A stretch of DNA of 61,915 bases, filler included. It is 13 parts of 13 records of this genome, joined end to end, with 100 filler letters (N's around TTAATTAATTAA, not from the genome) between each part and the next. Parts side by side here need not be neighbours in the genome. Positions count along the whole stretch, not along the records: positions 5,032 to 9,653 come from SRR7504441_19113; positions 9,754 to 13,572 come from SRR7504441_19115; positions 13,673 to 17,487 come from SRR7504441_19119; positions 17,588 to 22,530 come from SRR7504441_19125; positions 22,631 to 25,804 come from SRR7504441_19127; positions 25,905 to 29,679 come from SRR7504441_19167; positions 29,780 to 36,874 come from SRR7504441_19168; positions 36,975 to 45,103 come from SRR7504441_19183; 5 more parts are not named here. One strand, written 5' to 3'. The translations under genes were made by a program, and so were the position numbers. Of this stretch, positions 5,357 to 61,492 are shown one piece after another; position 1 is the first letter of the stretch, and the number at the start of each line of letters is the position of its first letter. The notes under the pieces were generated by a model. That model saw nothing but the letters and a program-made list of their open reading frames with translations. It did no database searches and had not been told where the DNA came from.

Positions 5357-6556
5357 ATGCTGCTGGACGGGTTCATCGAGCGGCTGTACCGGGGCGAGCT
5401 GCTGCGCGAGTCGGAGGTGGTCGGCCCGCCGGGCCGGGCCGAGGCCGGGCAGCTGGCGCTGGTGTGCGCCCAGCTGCAGGACGCGCTGCTCGACGAGTCA
5501 AACGTGCTGCCGATCAGCACGCCGGTCACAGTGTGTGGGGACGTGCACGGACAGTTCGACGATCTACTCGAGATATTCCGGGTGGGCGGCCGCTGCCCCG
5601 ACACCAACTACACCTTCCTGGGTGCCGGCCGGCCCGGGGCTGCCCGGCAGCCGCGGGGGAGGCGACTTTGTGGACCGGGGGCACGACAGCGTGGAGACAA
5701 TCAGCCTGCTGGCCTGCCTCAAGCTGCGGCACCCGGGCCGGATCTCGCTGCTGCGGGGCAATCACGAGTCCCGCCAGATTACTCAGGTCTACGGCTTCTA
5801 CGCCGAGTGCCTGCGCAAATACGGCGGCTCCGCAGCCCCCTGGCGCTGCTTCACGGACATGTCTCCCCCCCGAGTAGCCTGCGCCCAGCCCGGGGTCAGG
5901 TTTGACTATCTGCCGATCGCCGGGCTGATCGACGAGAGGGTGATGTGCGTGCACGGCGGTCAGAGCCCGCCAGCCCACCCGTGAGCCGGCGCAGGGCTCT
6001 CGCCGTCGGCGCACACGCTGGACCAGATCCGGGCGGCGTTCCGGTTCCAGGAGGTGCCGCACGAGGGGCTGCTGGCCGACCTGCTCTGGTCGGACCCGTC
6101 GACCGAGTGCGACGGGTTTGAGAGCTCGGCCCGGTGCGTGAGGCCGCACGGCCGGCGCGAGCCCCGGGGCAGCGGGGCCGGCTACTTGTTCGGGGCGGAG
6201 GTGGTCCAACGGTTTTTGTGGACCAACTCGCTTGAGAGCATCATCCGCGGGCACCAGCTGTGCACGGAGGGCTTCCAGAGCCTGTTCGACGATCAGCTGG
6301 TCACGGTCTGGTCGGCCCCTAATTACTGCTACCGGTGCGGCAACCTGGCCTGCCTGCTAGAGCTCGGCGAGAAGGCCGCCACCGCCCCCGTCTCCGAGTG
6401 GCACTTCAACCAGGCGCCGGCCGGTCTGCCGTTGCGGGCTGAGTTGGGCGACAGTTTAGTGCGGTGCCGCCTGAGCTGCGGCGCAAGTACAGCTCGGGGG
6501 TGGGCGACGGGCCGGGGGAGCCGGACGACGAGGAGTTGCCGGACTACTTTCTATGA
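5357..6556 (+). CDS. PPG1: PP2A-family Ser/Thr phosphatase catalytic subunit, PPG1-like, 6 introns, 322 aa
   Basis: Removing introns 5417-5452, 5622-5661, 5861-5899, 5959-5994, 6134-6172 and 6414-6454 (GC-AG) gives a continuous ORF with [39 protein letters not shown] and C-terminal DYFL*. The N-terminus [14 protein letters not shown] resembles fungal Ppg1. Confidence 0.88.
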
Positions 6557-6594
6557 CGTCGGTTTAAATAAAGGCCTAAGTAGTAAATTAATGG

Positions 6595-6921
6595 CTACAC
6601 GATGTGGCAACCGGCTAGGTCCGGGTCAGCCGTCGGCACCCGTTCGAACACCAAGCGGCTCCGGCCCATCTTGCCGGCTCGGTTGATCGTCCCGTAGATC
6701 GCTTCCGCCGTGCCCGAGGCCATTCCAGCCAGCCAGTGGAACAGGTGCAGCGCCAGGACGGCCAGCGCGCCCGGCTTGGCCGGCTGGCTGGTCCGATCGG
6801 GCACCGGTCGGCTCTTGCCGGTGCGGTTGACTCTGAAGCGCGACCGCCTGATCTGGACAGGCAAAGCTGCCCGGCCCATGTAGTCCGGCACCGGCAGGCA
6901 GCTCCGCAGCTCGCGCGCCAT
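6595..6921 (-). CDS. small hypothetical protein
   Basis: 108-aa ATG ORF ending in the AT-rich gap convergent with the phosphatase. No motif recognised. Confidence 0.3.
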   Translation of the reverse strand: MARELRSCLPVPDYMGRAALPVQIRRSRFRVNRTGKSRPVPDRTSQPAKPGALAVLALHLFHWLAGMASGTAEAIYGTINRAGKMGRSRLVFERVPTADPDLAGCHIV

Positions 6922-6985
6922 GCGCCGTCTGGTTGTGAAGCCACCCGAGCCGGCCTCTTCGCTTCGAGCTGTTCAACCGGTCAAA

Positions 6986-6997
6986 TTTTCCCGCCAA
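6986..6997 (+). promoter_or_regulatory. E2F-like site TTTTCCCGCCAA just upstream of trmL
   Basis: Matches the TTTSSCGC consensus, 15 nt before the ATG at 7013. Single occurrence, so it may be chance. Confidence 0.25.
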
Positions 6998-7012: not shown

Positions 7013-7667
7013 ATGGCTGGGCGTGTGGCCCGGGTGGTGCTGGTCAGCCCGGTGGTGCCGCACAACACCGGGGCGATCGGGCGGACCTGCCTGGGACTGG
7101 GCGCCGAGCTCCACCTGGTCCACCCGCTCGGTTTCGACCTCTCCTCCGCCGGTGCCGCCGCGCGGGGCCAGCTCAGTGGGCTGCAGCGCTCAAGCGGGCT
7201 GGGCTGGACTACTGGCCGAGGCTCCGGGTGGCCGAGCACGACAGCTGGGCCGCCTTCCGCACCGCGGAGCTCCAGACGCCGGAGCGCCGGGCAGGGGCGG
7301 TCATCTTCTCGCGGGCCGGCCGGTTCGGGGCGAGCAGCCTGTTCGAGCACAGGCGCCGGCCGATCGGGCGTCGGGCGAGCGGGTGGCAGGTTCGAGTGCG
7401 GGCCAGAGGCGGAGGTTAGCCTGATCTTCGGCTCGGAGCAGGAAGGAGTGCGCAGCCTGCCGGCGGCCGACCGGGAGCAGCTGACCAAGCTTTTCCTGCC
7501 GATGGACGACAGCCAGATCCGGTCCGGGCTACTAGCGGGGCGGGGCGAACCGGGGCAGGTCGTACAACCTGGCCAACGCGGCGGCTGTTGGGCTGTTCGA
7601 GCTGCACCGGCAGTGGCACCGGGCTCTCACTAGCAATTCGGGCGTTCAGCATGACCAACCGGATTAG
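7013..7667 (+). CDS. trmL: SpoU/TrmL-type tRNA (C34/U34) 2'-O-methyltransferase, 3 introns, 181 aa
   Basis: Removing introns 7152-7186, 7353-7389 (GC-AG) and 7522-7558 gives PHNTGAIGRTC, HLVHPLGF, LKRAGLDYW, LIFGSEQEG and RSYNLANAA, the TrmL/YibK motifs. Confidence 0.92.
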
Positions 7668-10179: not shown

Positions 10180-10746
10180 TCACTCGATGCCATCACTCTG
10201 ATGCTTCTCGCCATCACTCGATGCCATCTCACCCACACTCGCCTCCTGCTCGCCCACCCTGCCACTCAGCTCCGCTGCCTCGGCCTGCTTGGCTTCCAAA
10301 GCAGCCTCCGACTCATCACGCTTCTGCTCAGCCGCTGCAAGCGCAGCTTGGTGTGATCGCCTGTCCTCCTCGCGGGGGGCTTGGCTCCGCCTCACCTGAC
10401 ACCCCGACCCTGAGCCTCTAAGCTTTGCCACCCCGCCACCGCCTCCTCCATTGCAGTGCTATGCTTGTCCTCAAGTGCCTGGACAACGTCCCTCTGCGCC
10501 GCATCCTCGCCCGAGAGCGCCTCCGCGTCTTCCGCCCGAGCTTCCACACTCTGGGCCCGCGCCTCCGCTGCCTGGTCGCCCGTCAGATCCGACCGACTGG
10601 GCAGCGAGCGCCTGTAGGTTCGCCGGCGATTCGGTGAGGGAGGCTACCGTCTGCTGCAGCACGGTGCTCAGCTCGAGCACCTTGGCCTGCTCCGCGGCCA
10701 CAATCCCCCGGTACCTGCTGGAGCCCGCCCTGCCCGACCATTTCAC
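10180..10746 (-). CDS. hypothetical coiled-coil protein, intron-containing, boundaries uncertain
   Basis: Ala/Glu/Gln-rich heptad segments joinable through ~35-40-nt introns; no clear start codon. Confidence 0.3.
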
Positions 10747-10758
10747 TCGAGTGAAAAA

Positions 10759-12455
10759 ATGGGCTGCAGGTCATCAGCTTGCACGGCAACAATCGTGCTG
10801 CTGGGCGGGGCTCTGGCGGCGTACCAGGGCGAGGCTTTGCGGCCATGGTATCATTTCACCCGGCAGCACGGCGAGATGAAGTGCCTGCCCGGCCCGGCCC
10901 CGCTGAGCCGGGTGGCAGCGACCCGAACGGGTTACAGTGGCGCCGGGTGAACGGATCGGTGCGGTACGAGATGTTCCACCAGCACAACAACGGCAGCACC
11001 GCCTGCTACGGCTCCGAGGGCAGCGGGGACGTCTGGGGGCATGCCTCCTCGCCGGACCTTGTCCGTTGGACCCGCTGGCCGCTCACCGACCGGATGACCT
11101 GCGCCTCCACCGGGGCAGGCATCACGCTCCCGCCCGATTTCCGGGGCCCGAACGGCGAGCGCTGGCTGAGCGCCAACTTGGGTTCGGCCCCGGCGATGAA
11201 GCCCAACCCGGACGAGACGGTGGGCCGGGGGCTCAAGCTTTGGACTTCCAATGACTCGCGGACACTCAACTACTATGATGAGTATCTGCCGCCCGGTACA
11301 GCCACAATAGACAACCAGACGCGCCAGAACAACGCGTGTGTGATCTGCCCGGCCAAGGTGCGCCAAGGCGCTTCCAATCCGCCGAGCTGGACGCGCGCGG
11401 CCGACATAGGCGATTCGTACATTTGGAGTGAGCCGACCTGGGACAAGCCTTCGAACAATCGAACCTTCTACGCCATGTCCGGCCAGGGCCGCTGCCCGGC
11501 CGGCGGGCCGCCCATGTGGTGCGGCTGGGCCAACGGGCGGGAGCCGCAAGTGCTGCTGTGGTCGTCCAAGAATCTTGTCGACTGGCGGTTTGTCTCTGAA
11601 TTCTACAACGGAACAGCTGACGATCGCACGGCGGTGATGACCCCCGAGACGTTTACGTTTGCAACGGGCGAGCAGGCGCTGATTTGGCTCGGGTCGCACA
11701 ACTCGCTCTACGTGACTGGCCTAGCTTCCCGCCGTGACGGCGAGATTTATGCATTTCGGGAGCGGCAGTTTAATGGAAATCCAAGTACCGGCTCTGTGGA
11801 CCTCGGCGGCGGCACCCACTGCGGCCAGTCCATGTGGGACGCGGCGGGGCGGCGGGTCCAGTTCATGTGGCTTGGGCTCAGTCTTCCGGGTGCGAGCTGG
11901 ACAGGGGCACAGACAATCGCCCGCGAGGTACTGCTGGCCCCGGTGAGCCCAAGCGCCACTGGCTTGTGGTTTCGGCCCATTCCGGAGATTGCCAGCCTGC
12001 ACACCTCCGTGGCGCCCGGCCTGGCGGAGCGGTACGTCATTGCCAATGATACTCGGCGGCTGTTCTCTCCTGAAGATGGGATGCACTGCCATATCAAGCT
12101 GGCAGTTACGCCGGGCGAGGCCGGAGTGCTCAACGTCACAGTGAGGGATGGCGTGCAGCCTGGGTCGACGGGCAGCCTCGCGATTTCTGTGGAGCAAGCT
12201 GGCGGCAACCGGACCGTGACATTTGGGCGGCAGTCCGTGACAGTGGCCCGGCCCGGTGAGCAAGTGGAGCTTGAAGTATTCGTGGACGGCCCGATCGTGG
12301 AGCTGTTTGTGAACGGCGGAGAGCGAGTTATGACCACGAATTCTGGCAACCCGAGTGTCATAGCAAGCGACAAGATTGGGGTGGAGGGCAGCCGGAACGT
12401 CGAGGTTGACCTGCAAGTGTGGGGAATGCAAGAAGCTATATCCGGGCCCAACTAG
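10759..12455 (+). CDS. secreted GH32-family glycoside hydrolase (divergent), 1 intron
   Basis: Hydrophobic leader (TIVLLGGALAA) and RPWYHF. Intron 10881-10918 restores MNDPNG. Also WGHASSPDLVRW, GRRVQFMW and the C-terminal beta-sandwich motif LEVFVDGPIVELFVNGGE. Confidence 0.88.
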
Positions 12456-12570: not shown

Positions 12571-13572
12571 ATGCTGAGGAGCGGGGCGGGGAGGTGGTGC
12601 AGCACAGTGGTGCTGCACCCTCATCTCAAGGCCCAGCGGCGGGGCCGGCTGCCGCCCGAGGTCCAGCTGCAGGAGATCACCCAGCTTGCCAAGGCCGCAG
12701 GCTGGGCCCCGGACCAGTCGGCGGTAGTCTCGGTGCGCGACACCAGAGCCAAGTGGCTGCTGGGCAAGGGGGCCTGCGACACCGCTCTCGGGGTGATCAG
12801 GCAGGCGGCCAGTCCGGTGGCCCGCGTGGTGGTCAACGCGCCGCTCTCTGCACTGCAGACGCGCAACCTCGAGGAGTTTTGGGGGGTGCCGCGGTGCGGG
12901 GCGGCCGGGTGCCGGCTGACCAGGTGCAGGGTGATGGACCGCGTGGGGACAATCCTGGCCATCTTCGCGGCCCGGGCGCGCACGGCCGAGGCCCAGATGC
13001 AAGTTGAACTGGCCCAGCTGACTTATGATAGCGCCCGGCTTATCAAACCAGCAGGCAGCGCCCGGCACCAGAGCTGGGCTGAACCCGGGGGCAGGGGCAG
13101 CCGACCTGGAGCTGATGGATCTGGACCAGCAGCGGGGCGGGAGCGGGGCCATGGCCGGGGCGGGCGAGACCAGGCTGGAAGTGCAGCGACGGAAGATCCG
13201 AGCCAGGCAGGGTCAACTCCGCCGCAAGCTGAACCAGGTTCGCAAGCAGCGGAGCACGCGGCGGAGCAAGCAGCGAGCCGGGTTCCCGCTGGTGGCGATG
13301 GTCGGGTATACGAATGTAGGTAAGAGCTCGCTGTTCAATCGGCTCACGAGGGCGAGCAAGGCGGGAGTCGATGACGCGGTGTTCGCTACTTTGGATCCCA
13401 AGCTGCGCGACTGCTACCTGCCGCACAATGGCGCCCGCTGCCTGCTTACCGACACAGTCGGGTTTGTCTCCGACCTGCCTCACTTGCTGGTCCGTGCGTT
13501 CGGAGCTACTCTCGAGGAGGTAGCGCTCGCAGACTTGATTTTACACGTGAGAGACGCGTCGCTGCCGGCCGA
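12571..13572 (+). CDS. hflX: HflX/GTPBP6 GTPase, likely mitochondrial, 3'-partial
   Basis: Introns 12894-12929 and 13055-13094 (GC-AG). IFAARARTAEAQMQVELAQL, GAGETRLE, GYTNVGKSSL, FATLD, DTVGF; Arg-rich N-terminus. Confidence 0.92.
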
Positions 13573-14098: not shown

Positions 14099-14207
14099 TT
14101 AATAAATTTATTAATCACTGAATCGATCGCGTGGTGTGAGTTTTTAATTCTTCTGCTTGGCTTGCAACACTTCAGTCGCCGCCTGCTTGACCTAGGCAAC
14201 CGCGACC

Positions 14208-16571
14208 TCAGACCCGCCATGCGTCGGGCGTTGCCTGCGCCTCTGCTCTTCCGAGCAACTCTTGCATCTCAAGCTGATGTTTCCTTTTGAGTTTCAACCC
14301 ATGCCGGCGCAGCTTCGCCAGCTTGGCCTCACCGTGACTTGCAATCTGCCCGCGCTCAGCCGCTATGCCAGCTTGCTCGCACCATCTCACGCCAACAGGC
14401 CCGCAGCTCTGCCCGCGCCACCACCTTCACAGCTAGCCGCGCAAATCCGCACAGTCGCTTGACCCGGCCCGCACTCCCTGAGTTTCTACGGAGCGCAGCC
14501 ACTGCAGCGGCCACGGCCGACTGGCCCAACTGAGCCGCTCGAGCCATTGCGCGGATCGCGGCGTCCTGGCAGCGCTTGACTGCCTTGGCTCGCGCGAGTG
14601 TGGCGCGCTCCAGCGCCAGAGCCCCTCCGGGGACTAGCTTTGCAGCCGCCCTGCACCGCCACTCCACGAGCCGCCCGCGCACCACTGCCTGCCACCGCCG
14701 CCGGAGAACCAGCCGGAGCACCACCCCGCAAGCCGCCATCCGAGCAGCCCGTGCCCGCCAGAGCAGCAGCGGGCAAGCACAGTCAGTCTTAGGCCGGTCC
14801 AGGAACGCCTGTAGCCGGCAGAGCGCCGCCGTGCGGTTATGGCTGAGCTGACCAATTGCAGTCTTGGCCCGCTCGTGGATCCTGAAGAGCTTGCACGCGA
14901 GTGCACACACCCAGCTGCCGCCCGGTCAGCCGCCGGCATGAGCGAGGGCAGGCACCGCTCCAACCCACTGGCCAGCATCGCTTGCTCACGCCCGTGCATC
15001 CAGCCGGCCGCCAGCAGCCCGGCCACCCGCCGACCGGCGCGCGCCAGCCGTGCGCGGTACACCCATACCCTCACAAGCACGGCCGCAACCGGCGCCGGCT
15101 GGGCCAGCGCTGCGCGCATCTGGACGCTTGCAGCATGGATGTGCGCAGCTTGGGCGGTTGAGCCGCGCCGCCAAGAGTTGAGGCACGCTGCTGTGCTCGG
15201 CCGATCCAACCAACGCCCTAGCATCCCCACCGCCGCCCCGACCCGCACCTTGCGCACCGCGCTGCGCCGCTGCTGGGTGGCCAGTGAGAGCACGGCCGCA
15301 TTGGCTTTCGAGGCGCCAGAGCTGCGTGAGGCCTCAATCCGCCAATTGGCTATTGCCCGGGACGACTGGTGACCGAGCAACCCTCGGAGTCCAGAAGTCA
15401 TCCGCCGACGGGCATGCGCCGCGCGGGCCGCGGCTGCCCGCCACCGGAGCGATGCAATCCGCAGCACACTGGCTCCCCAGCTCAGGGCGACACAGCGGAC
15501 TGCTGCACGGCGCAGCCCGGCAATGGCATTCGACCGGGCTGCTTGCGACCAGCAGTCGATTGCCTGGGCGAGCGCCGCGGCCAGGAACCGGCGGGCCGAT
15601 CGCTTGATGAGCGTCGCGGCCCTGTGCCGTGCGCTGTCCACCTGCCACGTGTGCTTCCAGCTTGTGTGAGCCTGCAACAGCTCTGCCGAACTCATTCGAG
15701 CAAAGACTTGCCGCATTTTGAATTGAGCGGCCAGCTGGTCAGTCCAGTTATCGTGCCACCCGGCTAGCATTCGGGCCAGCCCGGCGTGAAGGAGTTGACC
15801 CACCACCCGCCGCAGCCGCGCGCGGCCATGGCGTGAGCCACGCAGCTGTGCTCGCAGCATCAGCCCAGCTCGCGCCGACCGTTCATACCGGCAGCGCCAG
15901 CAGAGTACCGCCTGCCGTCGAGCTGCCCTCCCGAGCGCCAGCATGGCCAGGGCAGCCAGCACACGTCCTGCGCGGGTTGACCGTCGCCTGCCTGTCTCGG
16001 CGGCCCAGAGAAGCAGCATGGTGCGCACCGCATTCCTATTCGCCAGAGGAATCAGTATCGCGCCGGCCAGTCCGCGGGCGCGAAGTCCAGCCTGCAACCA
16101 GGCGGCCTGACCCTCCAGACGAGACAGCTGCTCCTCCCGACGGGCACCTCGCTCACACTCGCGGGCCTTGTCTTCCTTCGCCTCCCCCGCCGCTGCCTCG
16201 CGCCCCCGCCGCACAAGATTCTCGACTGTGCTCCTCCGGGCCTGCGCCACCACCCCCGCCCGCTGCTCGGTCGCCCGCTTCGCCTCAGCAGCCAGCCCCT
16301 CCAGTGCCGCCACGTCGGCCGCCGCGTTTCTGGCCGCCGTCTTGGCCGCCTCGCGTCGCCGAGACAAGACGGCCTGCTGCTCTCGCTCCCGGACCACCTG
16401 CTGGGCCGCCTCCTCGCGGGCCTCCTCGGCGGCAGCCTGGCTGATCGCATGCTTCAGCCCGGCATTCGAGGCCCGCCGGCCGGACTTGCGGAGCGCCTGT
16501 CCCCGGCCGGGTGAGAGAGGGGGCAAGGGGCGAAGCGCGCCTCTTTCTTGGCGCCCACGCGGGCCAGCCAC
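14208..16571 (-). CDS. Arg/Ala-rich helical protein with Trp-spaced repeats (Sfi1-like?)
   Basis: Long ORF 14634-16571 plus downstream pieces. Repeated AxxxW motifs (LLQAHTSWK, AQAIDCWS, ACLNSWRR); exon structure not resolved. Confidence 0.4.
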
Positions 16572-16911: not shown

Positions 16912-17487
16912 TCAGCGGCCGACCGCCTGTGCTTGCATGTTGGAGTGCAGAATTGACTGCGCAAAGTCTTGCTGGGCACTCCCGACAGCCGACGGGGCCG
17001 TGGGCACAAAGATGGTAGAGGTCTTACCGGATGAGCTGCCAGGCGCTCAGCCGGCAGCCGGTGCGGGTGGGCACCCGATCTCCTTGAGCGTGTCGAAGTA
17101 CTGAGTCATCAGCACGATGTTCATCACCTCTTGGCTGCTGGTGCCCTCAATGCTCTCCCCAAACTCCTTGACTGCACCCCCGATCAGACAGGCCACCCAG
17201 ACCCGCCTTCACCGGCATCGCGCAGACCATCCACAATGTTCTTCCTCTGCCGCGCAATACCGTTACCAGCCAGAGCCGAAGCATCGGCCGACGCCTCGGC
17301 AGCCTTCACCACCCTGCGCCTCCCATCAGCCCGTAGCACGCCGCGGGATCCTCACCGAATCTTCTCAGCCTCAGCCTCGTCGCCGGCGGCTTGCCTAAGT
17401 CGGACCGCCGCGTTCTTCCGGTTCATGGCATCCTTGACTTGCCTCTCCGGCTCGACTTCCGTCACCAGCGATGATACGATCTTGTAC
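16912..17487 (-). CDS. SPFH/band-7 protein, hypersensitive-induced-response (HIR) type, 5'-partial
   Basis: Spliced translation gives [37 protein letters not shown] and [32 protein letters not shown] at 16912-16914. Confidence 0.88.
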
Positions 17488-22893: not shown

Positions 22894-23621
22894 CATGGCC
22901 TCGTATCCGATCGCAGGCAACTACCAGGCCAATGTGGGTCGCTGCATCGCATCAGCCCAGAACCTCAGGCAGAGCGCGCCATCCCGGGAGGGCCTGCGGG
23001 ACCGGGACGCTCGGCTCGCACAGATCGTAGAGCGCTCGGCCCCTGCGTACAGCGTGCTCGACCCGGAAGTGAAGCGGCCGCCAGCTGACGCCGAGTCGGA
23101 GCTCCAGTACTTTAAGGAGGAGATGGAGCGATATGCCAGTGAGATAAAGAAGCTGACCGAGGAGCTGGCCTGCAAGGACCTTCAGCTGGCCGAGGCCAAC
23201 GACGAAATCAGCAGGCTCAAGCTGAGCGCGTCGCTGGCTCCGGGCCCAGCTCCTGCACCAGCGCAGATTGTTGCCCACCGCTACCACAAGAAGGCACTGG
23301 CGGACGCAGGTGAGGCAGGCCTGGTGCTGGGCTCACCCGGGCGTGTGTGCAGCCGCAGCGCGGGGTGGACACATCCAGATCCATGCCCGCACCACCCGGG
23401 AGCCACACAGCCATGCCGATCCGGCAGTTGATCGGCTGGACCAGCTGGCCAATGATACGAGCGAGGACCCAAAGCCGATCCGCGCCGAGGTTGGCCATCA
23501 CCGGTGCTGGGGGGACAACTATAACCCGACTTGTCGACCACAGAGCACGGTGAGGCAAACCGCATGGCAGGCATCCCGTGCCAGGACTGGGGCCCCGTAT
23601 CGTCGGTTCGTGGGTTGGTAG
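22894..23621 (+). CDS. hypothetical coiled-coil protein, 1 intron
   Basis: MASYPIAG... with heptads ELQYFKEEMERYASEIKKLTEEL; a GT-AG intron near 23310-23352 joins it to the ORF ending at 23621. Confidence 0.45.
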
Positions 23622-42986: not shown

Positions 42987-44663
42987 TCATGAGCTAGTAT
43001 AGGCGAGGGTAATCCAATGGAAGTTCTTGCCGCACACACAAATCATGTGATCGCATCCGCTGACCCTGTACCACAAGACAATCAACACGTGTCGCAAAAA
43101 GACCTCTACCGTTGAATCATAACACCGCACTGCGGGCATGGCTTGGCTTCAATATTCGCGTAGTGCTCATTGCTGCCCCAACTCACCCCACCATTGGGCC
43201 AAATACTGACTTATACTCCTCGCAAGTCTTGCCCCAATGGTTGACCTTGCACTTGAAGCAGATGCCTCGCTCATCCCACGGATGCTTCCACAGCCAATGC
43301 ACCTGCCCGATCCATCTCACTACGGCCGACCCCAGGACACAAACCGACCTGAAACGAGGCTCGCCGTTCAAGGTCCTTGAACCGCTCGGCCAGCTGTGTC
43401 GCGAACACAGCGCGTTCAGTGTGCAGTTGGAGCTCCACTGGGCCACCAGCCGAACCGAAAGCCTCCAGCGGGATGTGCCTGTCGATCTCCTGCGGCAGCT
43501 GGTCAGTCTGGGCCGGGTAGCATTGACACATTGATAAGGAAGTCGGGAGTGGTCTGCCCTCTGTGGTAGTTGGCCATGGCAACCAAGATATCCACCTCTC
43601 GACCAGGGCAGAGAGCTTTCAGTCTGTCCAGCAGACCGTTGATCGGTGAGCTGTCATCAACGTAACTTCTTAGACGGCTGCCAACGTAGCTATCGGAATC
43701 GCGGGAGGCGAGCACAGCGCTGGCATTCTTTTCATACGCCCGGATCTCGGCAGATCCAACGAATGGCTGCCAGTAGCTCGTAGGCAGGCGCTCGGAGCAG
43801 ACCGGGCAGCGGATGGTAGCCACATGGTACCGGGACGAGTCGATGATGCCTTTGATGTAAGTTTGGCAGCACTCTTCACAGACAAGGCAGCTCTGCATCC
43901 CGTTACGACACATCTGACGTGTCCCTGGATCCAGCTCGACGCAGCACAGCGTGCACTCATCCCCGAGCTGGGCTGTGATCGGCTCAGGCTCGGGCATGGC
44001 TGAGATCTGCTTGGCGGTGCTGTTGAGCTTGAGCGAAGCTACCCAGGTCTGGTACAGATGCTCCATCGAGTAGTCTGGGTTCGGGTTAAGATTGAACGAG
44101 GGCGTCCGAGCGATCTGCGCCAGCCGCACCGCCTCGTCCGCCTGGTCCTCGGGCGACAGGTCCGAGGTGATGATCTCCGAGGCGGCCACCGCATCCAGCC
44201 CGGCCTCCCGGGCCGAGAAGCCCTTGGAGGCAGGCCGGTGTTCCACCCGGACGATATCGGCCGGCCCGGCCACCACCGCGTCCTCGGCCGGGGCGGGCGG
44301 CTCGGGCGCCCGGAAGGCCGCAACGAACTCGTCGAGCGTGATGTAGTTGTCCGAGTTTCGATCGATCTCGGCAAACACTCGGGACCATGGCCGGCCTTGG
44401 GCTCGGATGGCCTTCCGGAGGGCTTTGGCCTTCCGCCCGCGCATTGCCCGCTGGAACTCCCTCTTGGTCAGCCGGCCGTCGCCGTCCTGATCAAACTGCG
44501 TGAAGAAGGCCGTCGCGATAGCCCGGGCTGGGTCCTCGTCGGCTGGGTCCTCGGAGGGCGCCGGCTCGGCCGGGTCCTGACGGGCCGCTTTGGCCGCCTT
44601 GAGCCGGGCGATCTCGGCCTTGGCTGCCGCCAGCTCTCGCCGCAGGGTGTCGGTGTCGGCCAT
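42987..44663 (-). CDS. EF-hand pair + RBR (RING-IBR-RING2) E3 ubiquitin ligase
   Basis: DQDGDGRLTKREF and DRNSDNYITLDEF; RING1 CTLC..CEEC..CPVC; IBR-like CFKCKVNHWGKTCEEY; spliced RING2 KPCPQCGVMIQRVSGCDHMICVCGKNFHW; TGA at 42987-42989. Confidence 0.8.
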
Positions 44664-47771: not shown

Positions 47772-47844
47772 CAGAGGGCAGTGGTGTGTCCACGACTTGG
47801 TTTGACGCCGTCTGGCCGTGCCGTTGGCCAGCGGCGGCCGGGCG

Positions 47845-48893
47845 ATGAGTGGGCACTACGGACCGGCAGAGCCCGCGGCGGCGGTGCCCGAGGAGAGCGC
47901 CGCGCCGGAGGAGCCGGACGACGACGATCGGCCGAAGAAGGTGCGGCACCGGTTGGGTTGGGCGAGCGGCCGGCAGCGGAGCCGTTGGGGCGAGCGGCCG
48001 GAAGGGCTCCCCAAGCCGGAGCCACAGAAGGTCGAACTCCCGATCGCAGAGCACCCAGAGGTGCGGCCGGCGGGGGCGGGGCCGACCCGGCCGGCAGGTG
48101 GACTTTTTCGGGTTGATTAACGGGGAGAACAACATCACCAAGGACGCCATCGAGAAGGACACCGGGGCCAAAATCTCGTTCGCGGCCTCCGGGGCGGACA
48201 AGCCGCACGTGCTGATCGATGGCGAGACGGTGGACGCGGTCACCACCGCCAAGACCAAGATCGAGGCCATCGTCCAGCGGTGCCTGCCGCCCGGCCAGAC
48301 TAACCGTTGGCTAGTGCGGCCAACCCGCAGGCGGCCCAACAAGGCTCCGAGGAGTGGCAGCATAACTTACACACCCAGGCGCCCCCCGGCGGCCTGGCCC
48401 AGCTGACAGGCGGCCAGCTCACGTCGCTCAAGAGTAAGGCCAAGAGTGGGATTGGGTTTGGCTCGGAGGGTGGAGACCCAGCAGTGGCGGCAGCGGCCTC
48501 GTCGGGAGCGGCTGGCGGTGCGACCACGTACCACGTTCGGATGCCGGCGGAGCACGTGGGTCGGATCATCGGGCGGGGGGGCGAGACTATACGCAACCTG
48601 GAGATGTCTACGGGGGCGAGCATCCAAGTCGACTCGACCAACCAGAGCGCGCCCGAGCGGCTGATCACCATCACCGGCACAGTAGAGAGCGCCGCTGCCG
48701 GGCACGCTGCCGTGCAGGCCAAGATTGCCGAGGTGGGCGCTCCGGGCCGCAGCCTGGTGATGGTTGCTGGCAGGCGACCCAGCGAGGGCCTCCATCCAAC
48801 ATGATGGCTGGCCCCTACGGACCAGCCGCCGGGATGGCTGGGGCGTACGGCCCACCCGGCGGTATGCCCGGCGGCATGCCCGGCGGCATGCCC
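47845..48893 (+). CDS. KH-domain RNA-binding protein, 3'-partial
   Basis: FGLINGENNITKDAIEKDTGAKI and VGRIIGRGGETIRNLEMSTGASI, separated by short introns. Confidence 0.8.
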
Positions 48894-48993: not shown

Positions 48994-49902
48994 CGGAGTG
49001 CGCTCATTCCATTCTGAAAAGCTGATGGAGCGTGGCGAGCGCGACGAGCCCACTGGACTTCGGCTGTCAACTGCGACACTGCTGCTCTCTCTTTTGGTGT
49101 CCAGCTGGATGAGCCCAGCCTTGAAAGCATGAGCCATCTCCGCCTGATCAATCCTGCCGTCTCCGTTGGTGTCCACCTTGTCGAAGAGATCTCCCTCCTT
49201 CGAGTCCTGCCCCGCTCCGCCCTGCTCTACCGTCACCCGTGCTCTTGCCTCGGCCCACGCCACAAAGCTCTTTTGGTTTTCTTCAGAAAAGCTACTTTTC
49301 CTCTTCTTGGGCTTCGTTGGGCCTTGGCTGGCCAGCTGAAACTTCAGCTTCAGGGGGCGGCCCAGGGAGCCGATGAGCGCCAGCACCTCGCTGTGTGCCT
49401 TCCCGAGCACGCTGTGCCCGGCCACTTCTAGCAGCACACTGCCCTCGAGCAGCTTGGGCACGGCCGCGTTCTTCACTTCTCCGACCACCACATGCACGTT
49501 CGGCTCGAACCGGTGCTCCAGCCGCAGCCCCAGCTTGCCCGGCGCGTGCCATGTATGCTCCAGCGTCCTGCCACCGGGCGCGGGAGGGTCCTTTCTCGGC
49601 CCAGACGCCCGCGGCGCCGGTGTCGGCTGGCCGGCACTCTTATTCGCCCGCTGGCGAAACCCGCCGCCCAGCTTGATGATCCCGGCCTCGATCTCGGTGT
49701 CCAGATCGGCCTGGTCGATCTCGCCTCGGACGAACCGGTCGAACAGCGCGTCCTCGCGGCGCTTGGCCGCCTGCTTGGCCGCCGTGAGCTCCCGGCTCAT
49801 GGGGGACATCGGGGACATCGGTGACGAAGGGGAGTCGGAGGAAGAAGGCGGAGACCCGAACCAGGGGGAGGCCGGCGATTTGCCGGCCGCCTTGTCTGCC
49901 AT
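48994..49902 (-). CDS. PDZ-like + EF-hand protein, 3'-partial
   Basis: PGKLGLRL..GSVLLEVAGHSV..RPLKLKF; DTNGDGRIDQAEM. Confidence 0.65.
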
Positions 49903-50087: not shown

Positions 50088-51086
50088 TCAAGCCGACTCG
50101 TTGCCCGGTTTGCACTGTTTAAGGAGCTCCTCGAGCGTCTCACGAGCATCGCCGATCAGCTCTATCGTGGGACCGCCCAGGTGATCAGACGGACCGATAT
50201 GCTCGGCGTTCAGCCACACCACCTCAGTCTGGTCGCCCTGACCGGCCCGATCTTCAATCAGCAGCCGCAGCTCGGGGGCCAGCGAGTGCAGATGGCTGGC
50301 AGAGACCCCAACAGCCAGCACCGCCAGCACCCGCCCGGCGCTTTGAGCCACAAACTCGCGAGCTTTGGCCAGGTCCCGCGCGATCCTGGTCCAGATCACC
50401 TCCTGCTCGCCCAGCGAGTCAGTTGGCAGGTTGAACAGCGGCGGTCGGCCACAGCCCTCGCAGTTTGCTGGCGGCCAGTCGTGGCCAGTGCGCCAGAGCC
50501 GGTCGCACGGCTCGCACTGGAGCCATTCGGTAGAACCGTGCAGCTGGAGCTCGGGCAGGCCGTCCCGCCGGGCTAGACCGTCGATGTTGGTGCTGATCAC
50601 ACAGTGCTGATCGCCCAGCCGTGCCAGCAGTTCCCTCAGCGGGTGATAAGTCCCGACTGGCGCCCTCAGTGCAGCCGCCCGTACCGGAGCGTACTTTGTG
50701 AGTGGGTCCAGCTTGGATGAATTAGCCAGGTTGAGGGGGACGCCCGCCGCAGCCGAGGCGCCAGCACCGAGCATCACCATAACTCTGCCCGCGTTCCGTA
50801 GCACTGCTAGCGCCGCCTGCGGAGACTGGTCGGCGGGCTGCGGCACTTGCGCTGGGTGCGGGAGCAGCGGCTGGAGCAGGCGGCGCATGGCGTGCCCGTC
50901 GGCCTGGACCAGCCGGTGTGGGAAGAGGTAGCTGCTCCGCCAGGCGCCCCCGGCATCCTCGGCAGCCACCACCAGATCCAGGCACCGGTCGCAGCAGCCC
51001 AGCGTGGCTGCAGGCCCCGCCCAGCCGGAGCCACACAGCCCGCACGAACCTGCCGACTCCCGCGCCCGCTTGCGCCGCCGGGCCAT
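50088..51086 (-). CDS. divergent Sir2/sirtuin-family protein
   Basis: GAGASAAAGVP, STNIDGL, QLHGSTEWLQCEPC..CEGC, AVGVS, WLN, LIGDA. Confidence 0.75.
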   Translation of the reverse strand: MARRRKRARESAGSCGLCGSGWAGPAATLGCCDRCLDLVVAAEDAGGAWRSSYLFPHRLVQADGHAMRRLLQPLLPHPAQVPQPADQSPQAALAVLRNAGRVMVMLGAGASAAAGVPLNLANSSKLDPLTKYAPVRAAALRAPVGTYHPLRELLARLGDQHCVISTNIDGLARRDGLPELQLHGSTEWLQCEPCDRLWRTGHDWPPANCEGCGRPPLFNLPTDSLGEQEVIWTRIARDLAKAREFVAQSAGRVLAVLAVGVSASHLHSLAPELRLLIEDRAGQGDQTEVVWLNAEHIGPSDHLGGPTIELIGDARETLEELLKQCKPGNESA

Positions 51087-56330: not shown

Positions 56331-58570
56331 ATGGCGAGCAGCGCGTTCATCGGGTTTCTGAAGGCGTGCAAGTCTGGGGATCCTGCCCGGATCGGCGCCC
56401 TCATCGCTGACCAGATGAAGAACCACATCAACTGGGCTGCCAACGGCGGCTCGCACGCGGCCTATTTCAAGAGCTGCGGCGGCGGCTGGAGCGCACTGCA
56501 CGAGGCTACGTGCACCGTGACAGCAGACTCGGACCAGGGCTGGTCCAACTGCACCATTCAGGCCGATCAGCAGGTGGGCGGGCGCACGGTCCGTGGGGTG
56601 CTCCGCTGGACTGCGGCGTTCAGCGGGGGGCTGGTGGCCGGCTGGAAGGACGGAGTCAGCTTCCTGCCGGATGGCGGACTCGATCGCAAAGTGCTCCCTG
56701 CCCGGCAGCTCGGGAGCGGGTCAGTGGTGCTGATGCGCCGGCCGTACCAGCACCTTCTGGTGCGGACCAAGCTGAGGCTCGTCCCGTCCCAGTACGACTG
56801 GTCGCCCTGGCGCCACGGTGTGGCCCGCAATAACTTGTACTCACTGGGGCGCAGGCCAAGCCTTCGTCTGGGGTGTCCGGTGAGAGGCGGAGGGTTGCTC
56901 ACTGTGTGTGAGCGTATGCAGGTGCCCTGGGCTGGACCCAGAGGACGGTTCGAGGGGTCAGACTGGTCGCGTGTCAATTGAAAGCGACAGCAACATCAGG
57001 CACATCGCCGGGCTGCAATCTATCGCGGCTGGGCTCGTCCCGTTCGACCATCTGGACCGGGTCCGCATCACGCACAATATTCTGATCTGGGAATGTCGGC
57101 TCGTACCTCAGTCAGAGGTGGATAACGGCACTGCGGCGGAGCTAGAAGAGGGGTTCACTGTTGCACCCGCCGCACGACTTAGTCCAGAAGAACGGTCCAG
57201 ATTCTTGTTTGACACCCGCGAGCATGGGTTGGCCGATAGAGAGCAGATGCTAGCCGAGTTGCGTGCACGCGGGCTGCATCGGGCCGACGGGATGACAGAT
57301 TACGCCTTCGTCCAACAGTTGGCCGCCAGAGTCCACGATCACATCACTTACCACGCGGGTAACGACATGGCTATGAATCAAGGCAAGCCGCCATCGCACG
57401 CTTTCAAGAGTGGCTTTGGACAATGCGGGAGATTTTCAGCGGTCATGGTGTCTGCATGCAGGGCCAGTGGGATACCCGCCAGAATCCTCTATAACAACCC
57501 CAAAGGGGACAAGCCAGCCCGTTTATTCCCACCTTCTGCGGTGCACGTGTGTGCTGAGGTGTGGATCTCAGGCGCTGGGTGCCGCCCTGTGCTAGGTTGA
57601 TTTGATCCTGTGGGCTGCAGATGGGTGCTGATCGAGCCTCAGGGCGGTGTTCTTGGGGACTTTGTGAATTATATGGGCCTTGACACGGATGTTGCCCCTT
57701 TGGCTTCATTTAGAGACAGTGAACTGCTGTATGGCGAGCCCCCAGCTGGCCTGAGCGTGGGCGATGCGTTTGCCAAGTACGATAAAAACAAGAATGGGGT
57801 CCTCGAGGGTCAGTAGCAAGGCAGGCGGGCGTGAAACTTGCACTGTGCTGCAGGTGATGAGATTGTCGCGATGCTCGGAGAAGTGCTCGGCTGGCCAACA
57901 CCAATCCCATCTCAACAGAGGTGGCCACCCTGTAATGACTCTCGTATACCTGCTCTGTTGCGTGGATGCTTAGCAAGGCTTCAGCCGCGGTTCTAATCCT
58001 AACGGCAGGCATGTATTGGATGAGGCATTGGCCGTTTTGGACAAGGACAGCAATATGCGCATCAGTCAAACCGAGTTGCAGTCAGCATTGGATAGCGGAC
58101 TGTTGGTGTCCAACTCCCGGCTGTTCCGTGTAGGTCAGGCTACCGGCGGAATTCTCTTGCAGCAGTCCGCTAGTAGGCCTGCGAGCCTGCTAGATGGCTC
58201 GGAGCTTCGAGTCTTTGCCATGCCAGGACCAATCGAGGAGCGTATCCAAGAGGATGAAAAGTGCCATATACCAAGAGCAACCAACCCACTTGCCCTCCTT
58301 GCAAATCAAGCATACCCGGTGGCTGAGTTCATTTACGATAAAGTCACGGTGTACAATGTTGAGCCCAAGACAGCTCAGCGCAGGGACTTGATCACTGATT
58401 GGGGTGATGGTCCCGACTTTGATTTGGAGGCTCATCCAATATTACTTGAATCAGACCAACAGTCCGGCCTAGGTCCACGTCAGCAGTTCCTGAAGTCAGA
58501 TCTAGCCCAAGTTCGCGAGCGGTACTCCCAGCCTGGATCAGAGGCTGATGCCAAGGCATGGGCTGCCAGC
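56331..58570 (+). CDS. transglutaminase-like domain protein with EF-hands, 3'-partial
   Basis: GQCGRFSAVMVSACRASGIPARI (Cys at 57424), HVCAEVW (His at 57544), spliced GAGWVLIEP; EF-hands DKNKNGVLE and DKDSNMRISQTEL. Confidence 0.8.
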
Positions 58571-58670
58571 NNNNNNNNNNNNNNNNNNNNNNNNNNNNNN
58601 NNNNNNNNNNNNNNTTAATTAATTAANNNNNNNNNNNNNNNNNNNNNNNNNNNNNNNNNNNNNNNNNNNN

Positions 58671-59965
58671 GAACGGCAGGCGGCAGCAGACGCGTTGGCT
58701 CAGCCTCCAGCTGATCAGGTCCAGCCGGCGGCTGAACCAGCCCCCACGGCTGAGCCGGCACCAGTGGCCGCAGCGCTCTGGAACTCGGACCGGGTTTACG
58801 TCAAGCTGAGTCCAAGAGAACAAGCAGACGGCCAGAAGTCAAGAGTAGTCGGGGAGCACAGCGGCTGGATCCGTGCGGCTGCGGTGGCCGGCAGCGTGCT
58901 GGTCACTGCTGGACACGACAACAGGCTCAAATTCTGGGGACTGACAGATACCATGCCCCTGCTCGGCTCGGCCTCGGCTCACAGCCATTGGGTGCGGGCG
59001 GCCGTTGAGTCAGGCTCAGCTGGCGGTGGCAGGTGACGGCTCTGTGCACAATCGATGCCGGGAGGGTGGCCAGTGCCAGCTTTGATGGCACGGTCCGGGT
59101 CTGGGACGTGCCGCAACAGCGGGTGCTCAACGTGCTGAACGGGCACCTGTCCGTGGTGTACACCGTGGCCAAATTCGATGAGTCGAGGCTCGTGTCCGGA
59201 GGGGCCGATCGCAAGCTCAAGATCTGGGATTTGGAGGGCGCTGCGTGCCTGGCCAGCTTGGCAGGGCACGACGACGTGATAGGAGCAGTTGCCAGGGTGG
59301 CCGCCCCTGCGCCGATTGGATCGAATCGCGAGATCAGGTGAACCAGCGGATGGTGGCTAGCGCTGGCTGGGACACAGTGGCTCGGCTGTGGGTGGAGAGC
59401 GCGCAGGGTGAGTCAACGGATAGCTTAGCTCTTAGTCGGTCCGGCAGGTTGGAGCTGCGTGCACGTGCTTGCTGGGCATCGCGACTGGGTCCGGGCTGTT
59501 GCCGCGGTCGAGGTAACTATCCGGCCGGTGCAGGCACGAGCGTTTCGCAGGTTGGGCCGGGAGAGCAGCAAATCGTGACTGGTAGGCCGGTGGTCTGGCT
59601 CGGCTTGCAAGCATGGTCGGACAGGCTCTGACGATGGGACGATCCGGGTGTGGGACCTGGGTGGAGACTGCGTGGCGACTGCAGATGCGCACTACTCATC
59701 GGTCGAGTGAGTCTCTAGCCCTAGGCAAGAGGTGACCATGTGGCGTGTCAACAGATGCCTTGTAGCGCTTCCTGATTGCGAGCTCCTCCTAAGTGGCGGA
59801 GGAGACAGTCGCGTGAGGGCATGGAGATTGTGTGATAATCAATTGGAGTTGCACGACACGTACTTGGAGCATCAGTCCTGCGTTCGATCTATAGCGCACC
59901 ATGAGCGCTGCTTCATTAGCGCTGGGGACGACAAGCAAATCAGGCGATGGGATTTGAGCAATTAG
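58671..59965 (+). CDS. WD40-repeat protein, 5'-partial, multi-exon
   Basis: Repeated GH...SxSxDxTVRVWD units (SASFDGTVRVWD, SGGADRKLKIWD, SAGDDKQIRRWD). Confidence 0.9.
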
Positions 59966-60215
59966 CAGACAGACTGCGCATGGCTGCACAGAAGCTGGTG
60001 TACGTGTTCAAAGAATTCTGACGCTCAACCACTCAACAGACGAGTGCGCTACGCGATCGAGAGGCAAGAGCGCGTGAATGTGGTTTGTTAAGTTCAGCAT
60101 ACTGTACCGCTCCTGCTCCTATTGTACTCCTACTAGTAAACTGATTTATCGCGGCCAGGAGATTAACAGCGGGAGAGACGTTTATACATTTTGCGATTAT
60201 TCCGATGCGGAAAGC

Positions 60216-61492
60216 TTATTTTTGCGTTCTTAGGATGGATGCAGCGACTGATGCCGCACCGAAGCCGTTATCCACATTCACCACCGCCACCTAGACTCAA
60301 TATTGGCTTGCGCTCGAGCCAAGGCTTACCCCGGTTGCACAAGAATTGAGCATTGTCAACAGAGCTGCGACCCCACCAAAGCTAGCTCCATAACCGACAC
60401 TCTGCAGCCCATAGAGCTCAGCCGGCTGTTGGACCGTTTGCAAGCCACCGTCGGGACAGCGATCACTGGCGCCTGGATCAGTCCTGCCCCGCAGCCGTGA
60501 GCTCGGGGTGATCGACCGGGCACCAGCGACTGCGCTGGGCAGTGCACCATCCATACCAGCCACCACCAGCACGACATCTGCCTGCGATATCTTGGGGATC
60601 TCGGCCAAAAGCCTGCAGCTCGCTAAATCAGGCTAGCCAAGCTGAGCACCGGTGGATGCCCGCAACCCCAACATCACAAACTCGTTCGACTGGGATTCCA
60701 AACAGCTCTGCAGCCCGACCGATCAATCGCCGCTGGGCTAAACACACTCACCGCACACAACAGCCGCTTCTTCCGCCACCGGCACGTCTGTGGTTCCGGC
60801 GCAGACCACAGCCACGCTTCCCCGCCTGCCAGACAGGATGCGGACTGCGCCGCTTGTTGGGCTACCAGAGCTCCGGCCTTGGCAGCCCGTGTGTGTGGCC
60901 CGGGGCGCCGCACGCGACTACCCTGGCCACCTCAAAGTATTGCTGCCCCGGAGCTAGGCCGCCGGGTCAGCTGCACAGCCCACCGGGTTGGGTAGCTCTC
61001 TGGTCTCGAGTTCCCGCCACAGGCTGGGGCCAACCCGGGTGGTGAGCACGCTGCCCACACCGGCTGGCCCGCATACGGCCGGCCAGTCGCCTCTGGTCTG
61101 GGTTGCGCTCGACTAGAACTCGGCTTATCTCCGCGATCTGCCGCTGATCAGCCCGGCAGCCCGGCCCCTGCCTGCTCGCTGGTCTTGCCTTCGCCGTAAA
61201 TCACCTCCGGCAGCCCTGTGCTGCCCCGCGCTGGCCACCTCCGACCACACAGCTCACCGCAGCGCTCGGTGGTGGTCCACGGTGGCTGTGCCACCGGCCA
61301 CCGGCTCGGCGAACACGTAGCGCACGCGGTCGAGTGCTTGGTCAACGGACAGCCGGCCCTGCGACGAGCTGAGCCCGCCGGGGAGCCAGGTGCCTGCGCC
61401 AGGCTCTCGAACAGCTGCTGCATCTCCGCCCGCCCAAAGCTCTGGCTGCATACTGTCCGCCGCAGCGCTCCCCGGGCTGCCCGGGTCCACAT
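60216..61492 (-). CDS. larB: LarB/CpmA-family (PurE-like) nickel-pincer cofactor biosynthesis protein, 11 introns, 280 aa, mitochondrial-type presequence
   Basis: Removing 11 introns of 34-47 nt (434 nt total, 3 GC-AG) leaves 843 nt in frame. Motifs: [97 protein letters not shown]. Confidence 0.93.

Follow-up and report, generated by a model that had tools for sequence, protein, structure and literature searches.

How does a spliceosome find introns that are only a few tens of nucleotides long, very rich in G and C, and devoid of a pyrimidine tract? The question is raised by a 61,915-base stretch of DNA (the window) in which 13 contigs of 3.2-8.1 kb, a sample of one draft bin, are joined. The G+C content of the window is 52-69% (2-kb windows), and its open reading frames (ORFs) carry the eukaryotic domain sets PPP phosphatases, kinase plus RING, MYND plus BTB, S28 peptidase, GH32, CDC14-like, WD40 and KH. 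Both strands carry genes within one contig, and TGA and TAA serve as gene ends, which indicates that the standard genetic code is in use. An initial annotation described a system of micro-introns with frequent GC-AG termini and ascribed it to a modified splicing apparatus. The analysis presented here indicates that these are very probably ordinary U2-type introns of an uncultured, GC-rich marine protist, with minimal size, very high G+C content, recognition by intron definition, and GC donors that mostly follow an exonic AG.

A gene finder was written for this work that applies dynamic programming to codon usage and splice sites. In its first mode, a flat prior of 20-400 nucleotides (nt) was placed on intron length so that no length was imposed. 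The last round of this mode placed 23 of 53 intron calls at 34-47 nt, where about 2 are expected under uniform lengths by simple arithmetic, and the other calls were spread over 21-345 nt. The second mode used a learned length prior and returned 59 short and 5 long calls. The finder imposes G(T/C)...AG termini, and for 23 introns homology independently fixes the junction. The final list combines the filtered finder calls with the homology-fixed introns and contains 64 short introns, of which 23 are homology-checked, 2 have an ambiguous donor, and 39 are finder-only. They are 34-50 nt long with a median of 39 nt, and 61/64 lie within the 34-47 nt that the initial annotation had given for nearly all introns. 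Each of the 13 contigs carries 1-15 introns, and the density is 1.05 per kb. The micro-introns are real and well above chance.

The homology evidence comes from five genes that together contain 25/64 introns and encode a PP4-like phosphatase, TrmL, HflX, a PPEF phosphatase and LarB. Family hidden Markov models (HMMs) were built from 84 PP4-like, 78 HflX, 64 bacterial LarB and 73 bacterial TrmL proteins, the LarB and TrmL members being translations of loci L081-L240. If any one of the 25 checked introns is kept, the reading frame is lost or the score against the family HMM drops (25/25), and splicing them restores an open frame and a colinear homologous protein (Table 1). The same result is visible by eye in the PP4-like gene, where six gaps of 36-41 nt are needed for colinearity with intron-free relatives, and in LarB, where the exon fragments match NF033503 at the abutting profile positions 79-102, 101-124, 164-189 and 188-206. 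When metagenomes were scanned with the HflX exon, all matches were bacterial HflX proteins at 50-59% identity and no locus of a close relative was recovered. A homologue search for longer proteins with the PPEF exon gave no match at E <= 1e-8, and PDB searches with two larB fragments gave no LarB match.

A relative whose PP4-like protein is 71% identical (P0244-P0248) was compared with positions 5622-5661 and 5662-5860. Its genomic ORF pieces run uninterrupted across FLG/DFV, where the window has an intron, and break after ITQ, where the window has none. This comparison points to rapid intron gain or loss, with intron positions differing between close relatives.

Finder accuracy was assessed in the checkable genes, where the 15 filtered short calls comprise 14 exact introns and 1 with its donor displaced by 6 nt. 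A sixteenth call of 43 nt near a contig end (13490-13532) is false; the relatives P0250-P0252 read through it, and the filter dropped it. This call was made to reach a stop codon, and ab initio calls beside contig ends therefore deserve distrust. Six calls in all were dropped for terminal exons of <25 nt (13490-13532, 20815-20865, 25953-25992, 29108-29143, 49071-49114 and 36067-36316), and four further calls of 142-296 nt were dropped for want of homology support (16624-16919, 18556-18789, 32806-32947 and 43508-43802). The 250-nt call at 36067-36316 is both long and attached to a tiny terminal exon. Neither it nor any of the four long calls is supported by homology, and the five bridged stretches could reflect merged genes, overlooked small exons or true longer introns. 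Lengths of the 64 introns modulo 3 were distributed 21/23/20, which shows no bias against lengths divisible by three (3n). Selection against stop-free 3n introns, which are depleted in Paramecium, was considered and was not seen here.

Base composition sets the introns apart from a conventional class. They contain 40% G, 31% C, 16% T and 13% A, or 71% G+C. No polypyrimidine tract lies between the branch site and the AG: over positions -14 to -3, G makes up 43% of bases, T 15.5% and pyrimidines together 46.5%, and the median longest pyrimidine run is 3. At the acceptor, 58/64 introns carry C at -3, 47/64 carry G at -4, and the sequence is G-rich back to -9, which bears out the earlier description of G-rich 3' ends lacking a tract. 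The first exon base is G in 35/64, giving a GCAG/G acceptor. GGG is concentrated 5-9 nt from the 3' end. The G-triplet was rejected as an enriched intron element; GGG is present in 45/64 introns versus 52/64 in shuffles.

Donor and branch-site signals are weak and measurable. Among GT donors, G occupies -1 in 48/52 cases and +3 in 39/52 (G/GTG), and positions +4 to +6 carry <=0.3 bit each. The proposal of almost no consensus from +3 to +6 is thus correct for +4 to +6 and slightly overstated in that it included +3. The 5-mers most over-represented in introns are GGCTG, GCTGA, GCTCA and TGAGC. The loose upstream CTGAS/CTCAS/CTAAC motif noted at the outset was recovered as CT[GCA]A[CGT] in 27/64 introns, versus 6.6 in shuffles (maximum 16 in 500) and 12/64 neighbouring exon segments. 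In 25/27 of the motif-bearing introns the putative branch A, that of GCTSAS, sits 10-17 nt before the 3' end; the median spacing is 26 nt between the 5' end and this A and 12 nt between this A and the 3' end. Leave-one-out site scores averaged +6.0 bits for introns and -7.9 bits for decoys (2,231 same-length GT/GC...AG segments within 14.1 kb of exon), with an area under the receiver operating characteristic curve (AUC) of 0.976. The donor, branch-like motif and acceptor thus separate introns from decoys, which speaks against the suggestion that splicing is defined mainly by length and exonic context. None of the 59 finder introns starts with the U12-type donors GTATCC or ATATCC, and A occupies +3 in only 3/52 GT donors, unlike the rigid (A/G)TATCCTT donor of U12 introns.

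The termini of the 64 introns are 52 GT-AG and 12 predicted GC-AG. Six GC-AG junctions are firm, either by homologue scoring or because no GT alternative exists: 6414-6454, 13055-13094, 31649-31686, 61359-61393, 61138-61171 and 61051-61090. Of the placements at 6414-6454 that yield the homologous protein, GC...AG alone combines a G at +1 with a 3'-terminal AG. The exon end RLIKPAG at 13055-13094 agrees with P0250-P0252, and the LarB profile match stops exactly at the last exon residue before 61138-61171. The GC-AG share is between 6/64 and 12/64 overall and 6/25 among the checked introns; were the real rate 1%, six or more in 25 would arise with a probability of about 2e-7 by simple arithmetic. 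The GC-AG excess is real, although the verified number is below the at least nine claimed initially. The firm six include 6414, 13055 and the three larB introns named at that time, while another example cited then, 7353-7389, proved indistinguishable from a 49-nt GT-AG intron. The other intron with an ambiguous donor, 60826 in larB, is better read as the 40-nt GT-AG form, which fits the length class. Of the remaining predicted GC-AG introns, 10555, 10732, 14192 and 16497 have no homologues, and 37199-37238 competes with a GT-AG form of 34 nt. The excess is not unprecedented either. GT-AG accounts for 97.9-98.7% and GC-AG for <1% of introns reported for animals, fungi, plants and model organisms (PMC7072748), but a 1% share fails as a general premise because about 14-17% of introns are predicted to be GC-AG in the GC-rich pelagophytes Aureococcus anophagefferens and Pelagomonas calceolata, for which the authors report genome GC content as the cause (10.1101/2024.10.30.620910).

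The GC donors differ from GT donors on the exon side. An exonic AG, initially said to precede every GC donor, precedes 6/6 of the firm ones and only 10/12 overall. A is at -2 in 10/12 GC donors versus 13/52 GT donors (Fisher p = 3e-4), and in 6/6 versus 2/17 when only checked introns are counted. G is at -1 in 11/12 GC donors; at +3 there are 6 G, 4 A and 2 C, and G and C predominate from +4 to +6. As a set, the 12 sites follow the exonic part of the AG/GCAAGT consensus but not the intronic AAGT. In the U1:5' splice-site pairing scheme, an exonic AG restores pairing at a GC donor. An ordinary U1 5' end predicts such compensation by an exonic A at -2, and this A is no sign of a changed U1. Six calls were made with GA as a decoy donor, and none is an independent GA-AG intron. 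Four coincide with GC-AG calls and one with a GT-AG call of the same run; the last was counted as lying elsewhere but overlaps 61138-61171, a larB GC-AG intron that this run did not call. Two AG acceptors, separated by 6 nt, are present at the HflX GC-AG intron (13093-13100). The HMM scores of 364.0 and 365.0 bits give no choice between them, and the read-through ORF of the closer relative P0249 favours the upstream AG.

These properties suggest how the introns may be recognized and how they may have arisen. The introns would have been squeezed to a narrow minimal size and would have drifted to very high G+C. Recognition is most likely across the intron by a conventional spliceosome, with four weak signals acting jointly: the G/GTG donor, the GCT(G/C)A(S) branch site, the G-run followed by CAG/G, and the narrow spacing. 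The G-run before CAG/G may stand in place of the pyrimidine tract, with the branch site kept close to the 3' end at a constant spacing. Genome GC pressure could have turned a share of the donors to GC, at least 9% and perhaps 19%, and such donors would persist only after an exonic AG, which restores pairing to the conventional U1 5' end. The high G+C and the GC donors plausibly come from the same mutational or gene-conversion pressure invoked for pelagophytes.

Several results weigh against this interpretation. The strict branch motif is absent from 37/64 introns, which have only degenerate forms. The score threshold that keeps 75% of introns is also passed by 13 GT-AG and 35 GC-AG decoys in exons, which indicates that the measured linear signals are insufficient by themselves. 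The finder is the only source for 39/64 introns; at least one of its calls is false (13490-13532), and its whole-window run missed 10/25 checked introns. Decoy donor dinucleotides gave 3-13 short 'introns', only 0-5 of them away from real-model sites. Two marine metatranscriptome runs of the same sample contain almost none of the window sequence and, compared with 36975-45103, gave only chance matches of 18-24 nt and no joints.

The surviving decoys, the low information at donor +4 to +6, the missing pyrimidine tract and the introns without a strict branch motif would all be expected if the sites were nearly informationless, with introns defined by length and exon context and with alterations in the U1 5' end, the U6 ACAGAGA box, U2AF65 and SF1. 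Human precedents exist in part: G-rich ultra-short introns are reportedly spliced despite ineffective sites (PMC4463651), and a route that depends on SPF45 and not on U2AF is reported for human short introns (10.1101/784868). An altered apparatus is nonetheless unlikely, as the signals exist and discriminate, the need of GC donors for an exonic AG is compatible with an unaltered U1, and pelagophytes with ordinary 103-177-nt introns are reported to show similar GC-AG shares (10.1101/2024.10.30.620910). The data do not require an altered spliceosome. It is also improbable that the whole lineage has exchanged 3' recognition through the pyrimidine tract and U2AF65 for a G-run-CAG element combined with a ruler of about 26 + 12 nt, as is suspected of the few human G-rich ultra-short introns.

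Very little probability attaches to an artefactual GC-AG excess, in which misplaced junctions, C-for-T consensus errors or strain variants conceal a true share of about 1%. The contigs are draft metagenome sequences of 3-8 kb, and four of the 12 GC-AG introns (7353, 10732, 14192 and 37199) as well as the GC form at 60826 have frame-keeping GT-AG alternatives of 31-49 nt. The six firm junctions, for which an artefact is largely refuted, are fixed by homologues, only GC...AG gives them G at +1 and a 3' AG, and all six follow an exonic AG, unlike random errors. The remaining possibility is that these are not classical resident introns but recent introners, ciliate-like eliminated sequences or euglenid-type nonconventional introns. 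The internal eliminated sequences of ciliates are TA-bounded DNA segments, found together with a ciliate genetic code. The introns of the window have G(T/C)...AG termini and a branch motif and are not TA-bounded, and its genes use the standard code, ending at TGA and TAA. They form no introner-like sequence family in the 62 kb sampled; the best pairwise scores have a mean of 11.4 versus 8.5 for shuffled sequences and a maximum of 18 versus 17. Introners are reported from GC-rich marine algae with both GT and GC donors (10.1101/2021.10.25.465678), and the intron positions differ from those of the relative at 71% identity, but a non-resident origin is highly improbable given the termini, the code and the lack of a family.

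Ordinary introns reduced to a minimal size have counterparts elsewhere. Tiny length-constrained introns occur in Paramecium (about 25 nt), Blastocystis (about 30 nt) and chlorarachniophyte nucleomorphs (18-21 nt). Like those of the window, they form one narrow class near the physical minimum, and they are spliced by intron definition, the probable mode here; unlike those of the window, they are AT-rich or belong to reduced genomes. The pelagophytes share with the window a marine habitat, a GC-rich genome and many GC-AG introns, but their introns are reported to average 103-177 nt or to peak near 210 nt at 0.1-0.9 per gene, compared with 34-50 nt and about 1 per kb here. The Pelagomonas introner elements, reported as about 210 nt with GT and GC donors (10.1101/2021.10.25.465678), are repeats, and the introns of the window are not. 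Human G-rich ultra-short introns of 37-65 nt resemble these introns in size, in G as the commonest base, in G-runs and in weak or absent branch and 3' signals according to the account in PMC4463651. The human examples are a handful of exceptions, whereas this is the sole intron class seen in the window, and its G-triplets are no commoner than base composition predicts.

Among marine algae, the canonical introns of Micromonas, which is likewise marine and a picoeukaryote, are reported to have AG/GTGCGT donors and an NCTGAC branch site (PMC3879977). These signals are close to the G/GTGC and GCTGAS of the window, but the Micromonas branch site is placed 43-52 nt from the acceptor (PMC3879977), compared with 10-17 nt here. 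The BOC1 introns of Mamiellophyceae are described as <75 nt, AT-rich (<43% G+C), confined to one low-GC region and without a discernible branch motif (PMC3879977). The window introns are also short, but they do not match this class, as they are 71% G+C and occur on all 13 contigs. Dinoflagellates are reported to have GT donors with a minority of GC and GA donors, near-universal AG acceptors and a median intron of 439 nt (PMC12584245); GT with minority GC donors and AG acceptors are like the window, and the median of 439 nt and the GA donors are unlike it. Amoebophrya is reported to have many non-canonical introns (PMC7789003). A literature search, with most subscription journals outside its scope, found no description of a GC-rich, genome-wide class of 34-50-nt introns with such a GC-AG share.

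Table 1. Genes, introns and spacers of the window. Finder, predicted by the gene finder only; stop, in-frame stop on read-through; retention, change in family HMM score when the intron is kept.
Feature	Position	Strand	Evidence and remarks
PP4/PPG1-like phosphatase gene, 6 introns	5357..6556	+	Pfam Metallophos; homologues P0002-P0120; spliced protein 480.6 bits (PP4 HMM); retention loss 12-392 bits
Intron 36 nt GT-AG	5417..5452	+	Retention -14.0 bits; junction agrees with P0002
Intron 40 nt GT-AG, ends GGGGAG	5622..5661	+	Retention breaks frame, 88.6 vs 480.6 bits
Intron 39 nt GT-AG	5861..5899	+	Retention -19.4 bits
Intron 36 nt GT-AG	5959..5994	+	Retention -12.1 bits and in-frame stop
Intron 39 nt GT-AG	6134..6172	+	Retention -18.2 bits
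Intron 41 nt GC-AG, firm	6414..6454	+	FNQ/FSAVP identical in intron-free P0002, P0007, P0008; +4.2 bits vs best GT
TrmL/SpoU methyltransferase gene, 3 introns	7013..7667	+	Pfam SpoU_methylase; 136 bits vs HMM of 73 bacterial TrmL; retention loss 24-84 bits
Intron 35 nt GT-AG	7152..7186	+	Retention -83.9 bits
Intron, donor ambiguous	7353..7389 (GC-AG, 37 nt) or 7341-7389 (GT-AG, 49 nt)	+	136.0 vs 137.0 bits; intron needed, retention of 7353..7389 -38 bits
Intron 37 nt GT-AG	7522..7558	+	Retention -24.0 bits
HflX GTPase gene, runs off contig end	12571..13572	+	Pfam GTP-bdg_N/M; relatives P0249-P0252, 64-86% identity; retention loss 2.6 and 248 bits
Intron 36 nt GT-AG	12894..12929	+	P0250 contiguous at junction; retention only -2.6 bits
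Intron 40 nt GC-AG, firm	13055..13094	+	0 frame-keeping GT-AG alternatives of 20-130 nt; retention -248 bits
PPEF-type phosphatase gene with EF-hands, catalytic and C-terminal part	30862..32805	-	Pfam Metallophos, EF-hand; 169.6 bits (PP4 HMM); retention loss 5.5-100 bits
Intron 39 nt GT-AG	31497..31535	-	Retention -5.5 bits and stop
Intron 38 nt GC-AG, firm	31649..31686	-	+8.5 bits vs best GT; retention -22.6 bits
Intron 40 nt GT-AG	32052..32091	-	Retention -100 bits
LarB gene, 11 introns	60216..61492	-	NCBIfam NF033503 exon matches in order; 321-325 bits vs HMM of 64 bacterial LarB; retention loss 20-321 bits
Intron 35 nt GC-AG, firm	61359..61393	-	+8.8 bits vs GT 44-nt, +9.1 vs GC 41-nt
Intron 37 nt GT-AG	61221..61257	-	Retention -296 bits
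Intron 34 nt GC-AG, firm	61138..61171	-	+28.7 bits vs best GT; no GT within intron
Intron 40 nt GC-AG, firm	61051..61090	-	+9.3 bits vs GT 37-nt
Intron 41 nt GT-AG	60943..60983	-	Retention -248 bits
Intron, donor ambiguous	60826..60865 (GT-AG, 40 nt) or 60826-60877 (GC-AG, 52 nt)	-	321.1 vs 324.9 bits
Intron 44 nt GT-AG	60708..60751	-	Profile contiguous across junction, 102/101; retention -209 bits
Intron 37 nt GT-AG	60613..60649	-	Retention -175 bits
Intron 40 nt GT-AG	60484..60523	-	Retention -123 bits
Intron 47 nt GT-AG	60402..60448	-	Retention -100 bits
Intron 39 nt GT-AG	60291..60329	-	Profile contiguous across junction, 189/188; retention -19.7 bits
Predicted intron 39 nt GT-AG	657..695	+	Finder; 3n, no stop, weak
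Predicted intron 39 nt GT-AG	814..852	+	Finder; 3n, no stop, weak
Predicted intron 50 nt GC-AG	10555..10604	+	Finder; in unconserved 5' part of GH32 gene
Predicted intron 38 nt GC-AG	10732..10769	+	Finder; GT alternatives 41 and 59 nt
Predicted intron 38 nt GT-AG	10881..10918	+	Finder
Predicted intron 43 nt GC-AG	14192..14234	-	Finder; GT alternatives 22-31 nt
Predicted intron 37 nt GT-AG	14346..14382	-	Finder; stop
Predicted intron 41 nt GT-AG	14915..14955	-	Finder
Predicted intron 44 nt GC-AG	16497..16540	-	Finder; nearest frame-keeping GT alternatives 29 and 62 nt, off length class
Predicted intron 39 nt GT-AG	17036..17074	-	Finder; stop
Predicted intron 41 nt GT-AG	17172..17212	-	Finder; stop
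Predicted intron 42 nt GT-AG	17314..17355	-	Finder; stop
Predicted intron 41 nt GT-AG	20678..20718	+	Finder
Predicted intron 43 nt GT-AG	23310..23352	+	Finder
Predicted intron 43 nt GT-AG	26045..26087	-	Finder
Predicted intron 36 nt GT-AG	27023..27058	-	Finder; 3n, no stop
Predicted intron 36 nt GT-AG	27405..27440	-	Finder; 3n, no stop
Predicted intron 43 nt GT-AG, S28 peptidase gene	27900..27942	+	Finder
Predicted intron 39 nt GT-AG	29910..29948	+	Finder; stop
Predicted intron 38 nt GT-AG	30132..30169	+	Finder
Predicted intron 39 nt GT-AG	35671..35709	+	Finder; 3n, no stop
Predicted intron 41 nt GT-AG	37069..37109	+	Finder
Predicted intron 40 nt GC-AG	37199..37238	+	Finder; 34-nt GT-AG alternative exists
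Predicted intron 49 nt GT-AG	37714..37762	+	Finder
Predicted intron 43 nt GT-AG	38998..39040	+	Finder; stop
Predicted intron 34 nt GT-AG	43349..43382	-	Finder
Predicted intron 48 nt GT-AG	47784..47831	+	Finder; stop
Predicted intron 36 nt GT-AG	47941..47976	+	Finder; 3n, no stop
Predicted intron 37 nt GT-AG	48061..48097	+	Finder
Predicted intron 35 nt GT-AG	48280..48314	+	Finder
Predicted intron 39 nt GT-AG	49568..49606	-	Finder; 3n, no stop
Predicted intron 42 nt GT-AG	51008..51049	-	Finder; 3n, no stop
Predicted intron 37 nt GT-AG	56818..56854	+	Finder
Predicted intron 42 nt GT-AG	56880..56921	+	Finder; stop
Predicted intron 42 nt GT-AG	57579..57620	+	Finder; stop
Predicted intron 41 nt GT-AG, WD40 gene	58992..59032	+	Finder
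Predicted intron 41 nt GT-AG	59297..59337	+	Finder
Predicted intron 40 nt GT-AG	59408..59447	+	Finder
Predicted intron 38 nt GT-AG, ends GAGAG	59528..59565	+	Finder
Spacers	4932-5031, 9654-9753, 13573-13672, 17488-17587, 22531-22630, 25805-25904, 29680-29779, 36875-36974, 45104-45203, 48894-48993, 53592-53691, 58571-58670		

The 13 contigs are separated by twelve identical spacers (44 N, TTAATTAATTAA, 44 N), and genes on the two sides of a spacer are not necessarily genomic neighbours. One contig starts with a run of 14 C (36975-36988) and another ends with a short repeated GGCATGCCC-type unit (48860-48893); each is probably an assembly break. Rfam and tRNA scans of the window gave no match.

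The affiliation of the host is indicated by only a few genes. The nearest relatives are environmental sequences with 71-86% identity. In a quick single-gene tree, the S28 peptidase falls in a supported clade with dinoflagellate transcriptome proteins, and it is only 47% identical to the Aureococcus protein. An intron-free gene at 7747-9522 on the minus strand encodes a 591-residue protein whose coiled-coil N-terminus is followed by a protein kinase domain and, at the C-terminus, a C3HC4 RING; the ESM Atlas cluster of this kinase and RING domain pair is commonest in Haptophyta. The eukaryotic gene set also includes a complete LarB, a protein of nickel-pincer cofactor synthesis, at 60216-61492 on the minus strand. 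Among prokaryote genomes, its nearest matches are cyanobacterial, with 48-49% identity over one exon fragment, which hints that LarB is plastid-derived and that the host is plastid-bearing or was formerly so.

The intron class has a practical consequence for annotation. Standard gene callers, which set a minimum intron of 40-60 nt and accept only GT donors, would mis-annotate most multi-exon genes here. Manual or homology-based placement was needed for the 25 introns of the five checked genes, and the problem matters for marine eukaryotic metagenome bins generally. A minimal-size intron class, a G-rich and pyrimidine-poor 3' region, and 9-19% AG-dependent GC donors are each known elsewhere singly, and their combination is undescribed in the literature found. 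If the doubtful exchange of pyrimidine-tract recognition for a ruler and a G-run-CAG element were true, the lineage would be a natural system in which a poorly understood route is the default, and the relaxed +2 donor position would be a by-product. If the introns are ordinary, as is very probable, they form a natural experiment on the degree to which GC pressure can erode donor and 3' signals before a conventional spliceosome fails.

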